A stretch of 61,647 nucleotides of DNA. Source: Conexivisphaerales archaeon. Lineage in GTDB: Archaea; Thermoproteota; Nitrososphaeria; Conexivisphaerales; DTJL01. Below the pieces are notes generated by a model, which made no database searches, was not told the DNA's origin, and worked only from the letters and a program-made list of their open reading frames with translations. A program made the translations under genes and the position numbers. Within the stretch, counting starts at the first letter, position 1, and each line of letters opens with the position of its first letter. Of the stretch, positions 947 to 54,507 are shown piece after piece. The stretch lies in NCBI GenBank assembly GCA_049509455.1, contig JBEKZX010000004.1:1-61647 (forward strand), in the 5' to 3' direction.

Positions 947-1037
947 TGGCGGGCCCGGTGGGATTCGAACCCACGACCACGAGCTCTCTCCACGACTTCG
1001 GAGGCTCGCACCCTAATCCTGACTAGGCTACGGGTCC
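947..1037 (-). tRNA. tRNA-Arg(CCG) with 12-nt intron at 37/38 (986-997), encoded CCA
   Basis: GGACCCG acceptor, A20 in D-loop, CGAGC/GCTCG anticodon stem, GTGGG-TTCGAAT-CCCAC T-arm; CTCC/GGAG central BHB helix; TTTAAA ~25 bp upstream. Confidence 0.92.
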
Positions 1038-29513: not shown

Positions 29514-29594
29514 CGCCGAGTCCCCTTATTGTTGAACACAATCAAGTTGCGCAACATTTATTTAGCCTACCAGCCTGTACTGTTGTTGGTCAAG

Positions 29595-30617
29595 TTGAAC
29601 AAGCAATTAAATGTTATCCTCTCTTCGCCCGCCGTCAACAGGTTCGGAGAGCTCTCGGCCAACAGCTTCTCCGAGCTGGATGGCAAGAAGCTTGTTCTGG
29701 TCAGGAGCGGCGAAGATTTGGAGCCCATCAAGGGCTGGAGGAGCGCTGGGGACGCAGTCGAGATTCACCCCATCCAGCCGAAGGGCAGAAGAAGAGATGT
29801 CGCCGCGCTGGACTCGAGCGTCATCCAGATCGCGGAGACGGAGGACGGCGCGGTGTACGCTGCCAAGGCCTCTCTGGCCTTCAACATAGGTGGCGCGAAG
29901 AACTCCGTTGTGGTCGGCCCCAGTGTAATCTACGTGGGCGACGACAGTGTCCAAACCCTGCTCGGGCTGCTGGAGAAGCCTGTGCCCAGGCGACTCATCC
30001 TTTCGGACGCCGGGATGGCCATGAGGCTAATCCGGGTCCTGATGGAGAGAGTGCTTGCGCATGAAGTCTCCACCAGCCTCGAGCAAGGGTTATTGCTTCT
30101 TGACGGCTCCCTGAAACCCTCGGTGTTCGAGCCCAGGGGGAGCACCCTGAAGTCCCTCGTCGATGTGTGCGACGGCGAGCTCATCCTCCTCGCGGGCATT
30201 GCCAAGAGCACGAAGCTAAAGGTGCTGCAGGGGATAGAGAGCCAGCTGTTCGAGGACGGGGTCCCTCCCTCCTATGTTGACATCACGCAGCACGTCAGGC
30301 TCTTCGTGGCCGACCTACTCGGGAAGTCTTACCTTACAAAGCTGACGTCCGATGGCCTGCCCTTCCGCGTGGACCTGACGAGGTCGGAGGACCCCGACGA
30401 GGTCCTCTCCACCATCAGCGAAAGCGACCTGCTCGTGAGAGGGTATCCGGAGACGTTGAGGGCTGCACACTTCCTTTCGATATTCTCCGAGGCCGAGGAG
30501 GCGGTGGTCAAGAGCCAGCTCACGAGGAAGGCCAAGGTCACGGTCCTCCCCTCTGACAGCCTGCGGAAGACCGTCCTCGGTCCACTGACCATGTCCAAGA
30601 GGCGAGGGGCGAGCTGA
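29595..30617 (+). CDS. nurA: NurA-family nuclease (start uncertain)
   Basis: VAALDSS, LLLDGSL, GIAKST, GYPETLRAAH; coupled to a HerA-type ATPase gene. Confidence 0.8.
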   Translation: MNKQLNVILSSPAVNRFGELSANSFSELDGKKLVLVRSGEDLEPIKGWRSAGDAVEIHPIQPKGRRRDVAALDSSVIQIAETEDGAVYAAKASLAFNIGGAKNSVVVGPSVIYVGDDSVQTLLGLLEKPVPRRLILSDAGMAMRLIRVLMERVLAHEVSTSLEQGLLLLDGSLKPSVFEPRGSTLKSLVDVCDGELILLAGIAKSTKLKVLQGIESQLFEDGVPPSYVDITQHVRLFVADLLGKSYLTKLTSDGLPFRVDLTRSEDPDEVLSTISESDLLVRGYPETLRAAHFLSIFSEAEEAVVKSQLTRKAKVTVLPSDSLRKTVLGPLTMSKRRGAS

Positions 30618-45247: not shown

Positions 45248-45262
45248 GAAAAGGACTTATAC
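45248..45262 (+). promoter_or_regulatory. BRE/TATA promoter of tRNA-Gln
   Basis: GAAAAGGAC-TTATAC; spacing predicts a transcription start near 45284. Confidence 0.6.
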
Positions 45263-45294
45263 CTACGAAAAGTCTGTGCATACGGTAGCCCTGA

Positions 45295-45444
45295 AGCCCG
45301 GTCGAGGCGCAGGTGCGCCGCCGAGTCTAGCGGCCAAGGATACCAGGCTCTGGATCCTGACAGCCGTGGGCTAGAACGAGACTCCTTGGCGCTGTTGGGA
45401 GGAGACCCCTGGTGACGAGGGTTCGAATCCTTCCCGGGCTACCA
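45295..45444 (+). tRNA. tRNA-Gln(CTG) with two introns: 10/11 (45305-45325, 21 nt) and 37/38 (45354-45406, 53 nt)
   Basis: Spliced product AGCCCGG TC GTCT AGCGGCCAA GGAT A CCAGG CTCTGGC CCTGG TGAC GAGGG TTCGAAT CCTTC CCGGGCT A CCA; A1-U72; BHB-type helices at both introns. Confidence 0.9.
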
Positions 45445-53271: not shown

Positions 53272-54507
53272 TTGACCGCCGAGATGCCCTTCCAAGAGGT
53301 GGCCTCACGCCCAGCTCGCGGCTTCCTTTCGGGCATTCCCCAGCGGGTCCTCCTCCTCATCGTCGTGATGGCCGTCAACAACTTCGGTTTCAGCTACCTC
53401 TCCATAGTCCTGTCGGCCTACCTCCCTCAGCTGGGCGTCTCCGTTCTGACGGTCGGGTTCATCCTCGGCGCCGATGGCCTTTCGATGGCTGTCCTGACGA
53501 TACCGCTAGGCATCCTCTCAGATCGGAGGGGGAGGAAGTGGATACTCATACTGGGCTCAATGGGGGCGGCGCCCGTCTTCTTTATCGTGGCTCTCACGCT
53601 CAACCCGTTCCTGCTCGTCCTTGCGGCGGCTATAGCCGGGGTCACTCAGGGGGCCTACATGTCGACCGTGAACGCGCTGATAGCCGACCAGACCACCGCG
53701 CAGAATCGGAACTCCGCCTTCGCCGCCTCCTTCGTGATAGCGGGGACCGGTGGCAGCCTCGGGGCAGCCCTCCCCTTCTTCATACCCTCCCTCGCGTCCG
53801 TGCTCTCCGTGGGCGTTCGCTCGACTCACATGGGTCTCCTCCTGTTCTTCGGCACCGTTTCGCTCTTCACCCCCCTTGCCCTCTTCCTGATCCTCCGGAA
53901 CTACCATGAGACCGCGAGACCCGCGGGGAAGCTCTGGAAGGGGAAGAGCACCGCCAACCTTCTGAAGTTCTCCTCCATCAACAGCCTCATAGGCCTGGGG
54001 GCGGGCTTCATCATTCCTCTCATCCCCACCTGGCTGCTGTTAAGGTTCTCCATCCCCGACACGTACAGCGGCCCGATCCTCGCCTTCTCGTCCCTGACCA
54101 TAGGATTGGCGGCCGTATTCAGCCCGAGGCTGGCGAGGAGGTTCGGCCAGGTGAACGCCATAGCCATGACACAGGGCCTCTCCTTGGTCTTTATGGTCTC
54201 CGTCGCCTACGCAGGCAATCCGACCCTCGCCTGCTCCCTCTACATCGTGAGAGCTATACTCATGAACATGGCCTCGCCACTTTCGGACTCCTTCCTCATG
54301 GGCATCGTCGCCCCTGAGGAGAGGGGCTTCGCCAGCTCCGTCAACGCGGTCGTCTGGAACGTGCCCAACAGCGTGACCACCATATTCGGCGCCGCCATCC
54401 TCAGGTCGGGCGACTACGTCCTCCCCTTCCTTCTTGCGGGGAGCCTCTATGCTATCGCAATACCCCTCTTCTACGCCGTCTTCAGGAAGACCACGCTCAC
54501 CAGCTAG
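53272..54507 (+). CDS. MFS transporter
   Basis: GILSDRRGRK motif A, ~12 TM segments, PEERG. Confidence 0.9.
   Translation: MTAEMPFQEVASRPARGFLSGIPQRVLLLIVVMAVNNFGFSYLSIVLSAYLPQLGVSVLTVGFILGADGLSMAVLTIPLGILSDRRGRKWILILGSMGAAPVFFIVALTLNPFLLVLAAAIAGVTQGAYMSTVNALIADQTTAQNRNSAFAASFVIAGTGGSLGAALPFFIPSLASVLSVGVRSTHMGLLLFFGTVSLFTPLALFLILRNYHETARPAGKLWKGKSTANLLKFSSINSLIGLGAGFIIPLIPTWLLLRFSIPDTYSGPILAFSSLTIGLAAVFSPRLARRFGQVNAIAMTQGLSLVFMVSVAYAGNPTLACSLYIVRAILMNMASPLSDSFLMGIVAPEERGFASSVNAVVWNVPNSVTTIFGAAILRSGDYVLPFLLAGSLYAIAIPLFYAVFRKTTLTS

Follow-up and report, generated by a model that had tools for sequence, protein, structure and literature searches.

A leader copy of the acceptor strand in an intron-bearing archaeal tRNA-Gln gene: a candidate surrogate strand for splicing

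The tRNA-Gln(CUG) locus and its leader

The window analyzed here is a stretch of 61,647 nucleotides (nt) from a Conexivisphaerales archaeon (GenBank assembly GCA_049509455.1, contig JBEKZX010000004.1, positions 1 to 61,647 of the forward strand). At 45284-45444 it carries a gene for tRNA-Gln(CUG) that is interrupted by two introns, one of 21 nt at tRNA position 10/11 and one of 53 nt at position 37/38, and that is preceded by a short leader complementary to the 3' end of the same tRNA. The leader consists of GGU, the sequence AGCCC and a spacer, UGA. AGCCC repeats tRNA positions 1-5, so that the 5' strand of the acceptor stem is present twice, the second time as AGCCCGG at 45295-45301. The 3' partner of the leader comprises tRNA positions 68-75, i.e., five bases of the acceptor 3' strand followed by A73, C74 and C75. 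The parts of the locus are listed below.

45256..45263, + strand: A/T-rich promoter-like box CTTATACC, a putative archaeal TATA-like element; the best box upstream, kept in congeners
45284..45294, + strand: 5' leader, with GGU at 45284-86 (pairs with A73-C75), AGCCC at 45287-91 and spacer UGA at 45292-94
45295..45304, + strand: exon 1, tRNA positions 1-10 (AGCCCGGUCG); positions 5-8 provide the central helix of the bulge-helix-bulge (BHB) motif of intron 1
45305..45325, + strand: intron 1, 21 nt, position 10/11; hairpin GGCGC/GCGCC (helix B), then GCCG, which pairs with C5-U8
45326..45353, + strand: exon 2, D arm and 5' half of the anticodon arm, anticodon CUG
45354..45406, + strand: intron 2, 53 nt, canonical position 37/38, with the boundaries that give a cloverleaf
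45407..45444, + strand: exon 3, T arm, acceptor 3' strand, A73 and encoded CCA
45415-45433, + strand: T arm GAGGG/TTCGAAT/CCTTC
45434-45440, + strand: acceptor 3' strand CCGGGCU, followed by A73 (45441) and encoded CCA (45442-45444)
45436..45443, + strand: GGGCUACC, tRNA positions 68-75, which can pair with the leader

A preliminary description of the locus had stated that the first eight leader nucleotides match the 3' end exactly, and this is so: GGTAGCCC (45284-45291) is the exact reverse complement of GGGCTACC (45436-45443). The 8-mer occurs five times on both strands of the 61.6-kilobase (kb) window (1.78 expected), a frequency at which a match within one given leader of ~30 nt is roughly a 4e-4 event. 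Pairing of GAAG (45293-45296) with CTTC (45430-45433) had also been suggested. The two are complementary here and the pairing is real within the genus, but it is not conserved elsewhere; in a clade with the T stem CCTCT, the alignment shows an unchanged GAAG that can no longer pair.

When 45305-45325 and 45354-45406 were removed in silico, the remaining 76 nt were called by ARAGORN as tRNA-Gln(ctg) with a 7-base-pair (bp) acceptor stem and an encoded CCA. The unspliced gene scored below the gathering cutoff of Rfam RF00005 (22.1 bits versus 29), with a partial match (45324-45433) that included a 56-nt insert at intron 2. ARAGORN without intron handling missed the gene and reported in the window only a tRNA at 947-1037, as did Rfam at the gathering score.

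Intron 1 has a relaxed BHB motif that uses acceptor bases

The borders of intron 1 were assessed by a BHB scan (4-bp central helix, 3-nt bulges, cuts after the second base of each bulge). The scan ended exon 1 at nt 10, and the earlier placing of the intron at 10/11 is correct. The central helix, CGGU/GCCG, is paired at all four positions (one G·U), with bulges CG|A and AG|U, and was unchanged in 13 of 13 distinct sequences. The inner helix B has 5 bp, of which four covaried in the alignment of these 13 sequences. Outer helix A has 0 bp in the scan, so that the strict hBHBh' arrangement is not formed and the motif of intron 1 is a relaxed BHB. The central helix of intron 2 was read by hand as CUCU/GGAG.

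It had been proposed that the leader frees positions 1-8 for the motif of intron 1. The motif does lie on acceptor bases, but the bases it uses are positions 5-8. Because the central helix occupies these positions, three of the seven acceptor-stem pairs must open, and the motif cannot coexist with the acceptor stem.

The leader copy is conserved together with the 10/11 intron

Orthologs with and without the 10/11 intron were compared, as the preliminary description had advised, and the complementarity proved to be conserved, tied to the intron and accompanied by one covarying pair. The Gln gene was found in eight genomes of the family, in each of which the 10/11 intron is accompanied by the leader copy; in the ninth, which is 59% complete, there was no match to the gene. 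A metagenome scan with a 21-letter pattern over the 3' intron border yielded 16 loci with seven new distinct sequences, and each of these seven variants likewise carried leader copy and intron. In 8 of 8 Gln orthologs from two other families (a count that leaves out loci L017-L020 and L022-L030, in which the anchor was unmatched), AGCCCGGTCGTCTAGCGG is uninterrupted, with no 10/11 intron and no separated leader copy.

The first 8 nt of the Gln leader were constant in all 13 distinct sequences, which represent at least four genera, bar one compensated change in one clade, with GAUAGCCC as the leader sequence and ...GGGCUAUC or ...GGGCUAUG at the 3' end. Across these sequences the leader helix was 98% paired; pair 2/74 is G-C in nine and A-U in four, and pair 1/75 is unpaired in two. 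Divergence in this set is seen in the intron loops, the spacer (0-3 nt) and the stretch between box and leader, and the intron hairpin varies freely.

Some pairing upstream of the tRNA is found without the intron as well. GGT directly precedes +1 in two intron-less Gln orthologs (L009 and L010) and GT in a third (L012), where it could pair with A73-C75, and many intron-less Asn orthologs (among L146-L156) have GC before +1, opposite G73-C74. To judge from these sequences, short pairing between leader and 3' end may be a general feature of the order's tRNA genes.

The same design is found in tRNA-Met, tRNA-Thr and tRNA-Asn genes of the genome

The genome was surveyed for further leader copies by use of 41 tRNA-like genes, made up of 34 ARAGORN calls, a few of them doubtful, and 7 genes from a scan anchored on the T arm. 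Scans without this anchor gave hundreds of false positives and were not used; owing to the reliance on the T arm, the 41-gene catalogue is incomplete and may miss tRNAs with unusual T loops or 3'-side introns. A duplex of at least 8 bp between leader and 3' strand was present in 4 of the 41 genes, and the other 37 had 6 bp or fewer. When each leader was paired with the 3' strand of another tRNA as a control, 8 bp were reached in 11 of 1596 pairs and 9 bp never. Besides tRNA-Gln(CUG), with its 8-bp duplex, the genes are as follows.

Contig C53, ~29555-29696: tRNA-Met(CAU), UGCCGGGA-g-GCCGGGA, leader duplex of 8 bp
Contig C53, ~53960-54085: tRNA-Thr(GGU), GAGCCCCGG-aag-GCCCCGG, leader duplex of 9 bp
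Contig C116, 4881-5000, - strand: tRNA-Asn(GUU), GCGCUGCCG-ucga-GCCGCCG, leader duplex of 9 bp including one G·U

In all four genes the leader helix spans positions 73-75. The introns of the Met, Thr and Asn genes lie directly after position 8 (8/9), that of Gln after position 10. The BHB scan ended exon 1 at nt 8 in the three additional genes, with a fully paired central helix in Met (CGGG/CCCG, 4/4) and with 3/4 pairs each in Thr and Asn. All four central helices lie on positions 3-6 or 5-8 and so use acceptor bases. No leader copy precedes the two tRNAs of the genome whose introns lie at 13/14 and 15/16; their central helices occupy positions 8-11 and 10-14. Rfam scores for the Met, Thr and Asn genes were low or only partial, and the Met gene as called by ARAGORN begins upstream of both copies.

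The distribution of the design differed among the three genes. In Met, intron and copy were present in four of four congeners; neither was present in three of three other genera of the family or in 18 further loci, and one more locus was truncated upstream. Since the Met design is confined to congeners, it was gained later than that of Gln. In Thr(GGU), both features were present in 8/8 family genomes where the gene was found. In Asn, both were present in seven family genomes and both were missing from one congener (genome G001, locus L143), which points to a recent gain or loss within the genus; the Asn gene of G001 keeps a homologous promoter region and an insert in the anticodon region. In two genera both copies of Asn read GCCGUCG, opposite CGACGGC. 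The first copy is imperfect in several genes, as would suit a leader, with a mismatch in the Asn gene of genome G005 and a G·U pair both in the Asn gene of the genome under study and in the Thr gene of G001. The second copy is always a perfect complement of the 3' strand, which identifies it as the real exon.

The design recurs in tRNA-Cys genes outside the family

When 401 genomes of the phylum were searched for the pattern of a tandem GCCGGGG copy and a following T, 32 matched, a count that is not evidence in itself because a reversed control pattern also matched often. Twenty loci were fetched, and the full design was found in six of them (L202, L203 and L206-L209), which come from six genomes, two in one family and four in a second. 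These loci share the layout GCCGGGG, a 4-nt spacer, GCCGGGGU, an intron that the BHB scan puts at 18-23 nt, and CCCCGGC as the 3' strand; the BHB of the intron again uses acceptor bases. After in silico splicing, ARAGORN called tRNA-Cys(GCA) in 6/6. The other 14 fetched loci had no matching 3' strand with a T arm. In all, the leader copy was seen in three families and in no fewer than five tRNA species, and on the strength of these genes the feature is more general than an observation on a single gene, namely, a recurrent design.

The Cys genes with a leader copy have an unusual T loop, UGCAAAU.

The leader displaces the acceptor stem in folding models

Partition functions were computed for 24 distinct precursors (14 Gln, 4 Met and 6 Asn; one Asn locus was left out) with a secondary-structure model, which ignores tertiary contacts and proteins. 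The minimum-energy fold of tRNA-Gln with its leader contained the 8-bp leader helix, the helix between C5-U8 and GCCG, and the intron hairpin; without the leader, it contained the acceptor stem and no BHB helix. The probability of the acceptor stem was at most 0.05 with the leader in 23 of 24 precursors, and without it 0.86-0.98 in 23 of 24 and 0.33 in one. In the model the leader thus abolishes the acceptor stem, in line with the preliminary description, according to which the leader sequesters the 3' strand. The probability of the BHB central helix without the leader was at most 0.02 in 24/24 precursors (0.01 for the tRNA-Gln of the window). With the leader it rose to 0.85 for this tRNA-Gln, and shuffled leaders gave lower means (0.20 in that gene). 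The acceptor stem is robustly displaced in the model; formation of the small BHB helix is predicted only sometimes.

Promoter spacing, presence in nucleic acid libraries and processing enzymes

Among 33 ordinary tRNA genes, the distance from the best A/T-rich box to +1 was 23-27 nt in 23 genes, with a mode of 26. In the four genes with a leader copy, the box lies 23, 25, 25 and 23 nt before the first copy and 31-36 nt before the true +1 (23 and 31 nt, respectively, for tRNA-Gln). With the spacing that is usual in archaea, the transcription start would be expected at the first copy or immediately before it; for tRNA-Gln, the start predicted at 45284 is based on promoter spacing only. A scan for bacterial-type promoters and terminators, which is not applicable to archaea, gave nothing. 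DNA of the stretch was present in peat metagenome runs, and one 197-nt contig from a sediment metatranscriptome, derived from a relative, covers 45250-45418 with six differences.

The genome encodes a full-length archaeal ribonuclease P (RNase P) RNA (186 bits), and no match over the cutoff was obtained in it for the reduced "type T" RNase P RNA. An explanation by life without RNase P was rejected since a normal archaeal RNase P RNA is present. Two open reading frames of the EndA family, of 181 and 269 amino acids, each contain PF02778 and PF01974 (N- and C-terminal domains). Their domain content is consistent with a splicing endonuclease of the heterotetramer type, which PMC5829648 gives as one of only two types that cut noncanonical introns. 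Removal of the leader by the splicing endonuclease was considered, with an inspection by hand for a BHB cut at -1/+1, and was rejected: the leader helix is free of bulges, and the one register that fits would place the cut between positions 72 and 73.

A surrogate acceptor strand as the favored interpretation

Conservation, association with the intron and modeled displacement together are best fitted by a leader that serves as a selected surrogate (decoy) acceptor strand, which frees the short 5' exon for splicing and tethers it; we consider this rather probable, with substantial room for doubt. Support comes from the sequences themselves, their conservation, the covarying pair, the strict tie to introns with a BHB on acceptor bases, and the displacement of the stem in the models. 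If transcription begins at the first copy or slightly upstream of it, the RNA would have GGU-AGCCC at its 5' end, and this stretch would pair with positions 68-75 in a helix of 8 bp (9-10 bp in other genera) that would outcompete the 7-bp acceptor stem and leave the true 5' strand free. The freed positions 5-8 and the terminal GCCG of intron 1 could then pair, forming the 4-bp helix of the BHB motif that the splicing endonuclease would cut. At cleavage, a 5' exon of 8-10 nt would otherwise be paired only to the departing intron, and we therefore propose a tethering role: the leader helix would hold the 10-nt 5' exon on the tRNA body while the intron is cut away, permitting ligation. The helix might also withhold the substrate of RNase P until a later stage; once ligation is complete, the true strand would replace the leader and RNase P would remove it. 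Introns located slightly further into the tRNA leave the acceptor stem intact, which would explain why the genes with introns at 13/14 and 15/16 have no leader copy.

Several observations weigh against this interpretation. The Gln covariation probably amounts to one compensatory change from a single event. In the Asn comparison, the difference between G001 and its congeners can be aligned with two gaps, of 13 and 23 nt, or explained by a single indel of ~32-35 nt. The GGU before +1 in the intron-less orthologs L009 and L010 implies that the GGU extension predates the intron, and the position of the first copy at the ordinary +1 distance from the promoter means that the design may owe its origin to the insertion of the intron. 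In the folding models, the acceptor stem of the precursor from genome G008 was not displaced (probability of 0.93 with the leader), and the BHB helix with the leader reached 0.5 or more in only 5 of 24 precursors, and was 0.10-0.49 in 7; the remaining 12, among them all six Asn, fell below 0.10. Even when precursors were modeled without intron 1 but with their leader, the leader helix prevailed in 22 of 23; the folding switch envisaged in the preliminary description is not borne out here, as the model gives no return to the acceptor stem after removal of intron 1. The contig from the metatranscriptome is unspliced, with both introns present over the part covered, and may be DNA carryover; it also runs upstream of the predicted start, into unlike sequence.

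The strongest competing explanation is that the leader copy is a functionless relic of intron gain, left when a cassette (spacer, new positions 1-8 or 1-10, and intron) was inserted or when a mobile element integrated and was lost, so that the old 5' strand persists as a dead duplicate. The normal promoter distance of the first copy in four of four genes would follow from it, as would the possible single indel of ~32-35 nt in Asn, and the upstream pairing with positions 73-75 that pre-exists in intron-less orthologs is in keeping with it. There is also a precedent: the part of PMC3293823 that deals with tRNA-Thr(GGU) of Caldiarchaeum subterraneum, a related archaeon, credits an integrating element with the gain of an intron (24/25) together with a duplicated 5' fragment of the tRNA, and direct repeats near intron borders in general are mentioned in passages of PMC11782384. 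The fragment of Caldiarchaeum, as it is described in those passages of PMC3293823, comprises positions 1-27. Located 1.8 kb or >500 kb away, it borders an insert that carries a recombinase. The copy described here has 5-8 nt, lies 0-5 nt upstream within the transcript, with no element between the copies, is conserved across genera and is tied to introns at 8/9 to 10/11; unlike the fragment of Caldiarchaeum, it ends before the intron position. The spacing of the copies (3 nt here and 0-5 nt in relatives) does not correspond to an att-site duplication, although the neighboring genes were not searched for integrases. A dead duplicate is also hard to reconcile with an 8-nt Gln leader kept across at least four genera, with one compensated change, while its flanks diverged, with the same outcome in at least five tRNA species, and with introns of the same genome at 13/14, 15/16 and 37/38 that have no duplicated upstream exon. 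Such a relic would account for the origin of the copy and not for its maintenance, and is compatible with a later function. We regard an explanation by origin alone as unlikely, if still deserving of attention. The two readings may be combined, in that a by-product of insertion was kept because it was needed.

The leader helix could instead guard the end of the tRNA, either by protecting the encoded CCA or by blocking RNase P or aminoacylation while precursors are unfinished, as an extension of the pairing between positions -1 to -3 and 73-75 and unrelated to the BHB. Leader-trailer pairing slows RNase P. The inclusion of positions 73-75 in the leader helix of all four genes agrees with such a role, as do GGU or GU (L009, L010 and L012) and GC (many Asn genes) before +1 in intron-less orthologs. 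It leaves unexplained why a full copy is found only with introns whose BHB uses acceptor bases (4/4, versus 0/37 among the other genes) and why the copy is absent where the intron is absent, and we therefore hold it to be improbable.

Still less can be said for the view that the first copy is the true mature 5' end and the second copy belongs to a longer or additional intron, which we give very little credence. The first copy does lie at a normal distance from the promoter, and in the Asn gene of genome G007 both copies could pair with GACG of the intron. The first copy in Gln, however, consists only of AGCCC and is followed by UGA; UCG (positions 8-10), which is fixed in intron-less orthologs, occurs only after the second copy, and U8 follows the second copy in all four genes and the first copy only sometimes. 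The complementarity to the 3' strand is always perfect in the second copy and not in the first, a canonical BHB with an adjacent helix B forms only with the second copy, and an intron of 7-8 nt would be required, which is too small for a BHB. Chance complementarity, which the presence of five copies of the 8-mer on both strands of the window makes conceivable for a single match, is negligible in view of the conservation, the covariation and the recurrence in other tRNA genes and families.

If the surrogate acceptor strand is extended to a general rule for the phylum, an intron that borrows acceptor bases would always be accompanied by a transcribed leader strand that holds the 3' strand and tethers the 5' exon of 8-10 nt through cleavage and ligation, splicing would precede RNase P, and the arrangement would have been gained as a cassette, with a new 5' exon and intron inserted behind the old 5' end and the old end kept as leader. 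We put this rule forward tentatively, and would sooner expect it to fail in some part than to hold in full.

Relation to known systems and significance

Noncanonical archaeal tRNA introns whose BHB needs a fold other than the cloverleaf were reportedly described by Marck and Grosjean in 2003 and by Sugahara et al. in 2008. The BHB of intron 1 is likewise incompatible with part of the mature fold; the difference lies in the built-in partner for the strand that the BHB displaces, of which we found no report. Pre-rRNAs have helices between leader and trailer, and pairing between leader and 3' end in pre-tRNAs affects RNase P. They resemble the present case, in which a 5' leader is likewise predicted to pair with the precursor's 3' end and would affect the order of processing. 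The stems of pre-rRNA carry cleavage motifs, whereas the helix described here mimics the acceptor stem and competes with it.

The halves of split tRNAs of Nanoarchaeum equitans and others, in the relevant passages of PMC4090602 and PMC4033280, carry complementary leader and trailer sequences. As in those passages, an extra stretch outside the tRNA would pair and hold two tRNA pieces for the BHB endonuclease and a ligase. The tRNA-Gln gene differs from the split genes, as far as these are characterized there, in being one contiguous gene and transcript (45284-45444) rather than two separately transcribed halves, and in having a leader that copies its own acceptor 5' strand and pairs with its own 3' strand. 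Its leader helix is continuously Watson-Crick paired and without bulges and is not the cleavage site, the BHB being elsewhere, and its leader has to be taken off afterwards, presumably by RNase P.

Full-text literature searches yielded no published description of a leader copy of the acceptor strand, although older surveys of noncanonical introns may mention it. The question addressed by the design is what becomes of the strand that is displaced when a splicing motif needs an unfolded tRNA, and what holds a very short 5' exon; the answer proposed here, a spare acceptor strand in the leader, can be read in the DNA. Gene finders miss such tRNAs, and hidden introns close to the 5' end can be recognized simply by the tandem copy. 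Should the cassette origin prove true, it would bear on how archaeal tRNA introns are gained, the mode of which is called unknown in a passage of a 2026 preprint (10.64898/2026.10.13.758758).

Other observations

On the small contig C116, which carries the Asn gene, CATCAGG(T/G)T occurs repeatedly within ~280-570, at close intervals and on both strands; these copies came up as false positives of a repeat scan. The second tRNA gene of the window (947-1037, - strand; Rfam, 47.8 bits) was given a 4-base anticodon, "ccga," by ARAGORN without introns. With introns allowed, ARAGORN called it tRNA-Arg(CCG) with a 12-nt insert at position 41, a noncanonical intron in the anticodon stem.

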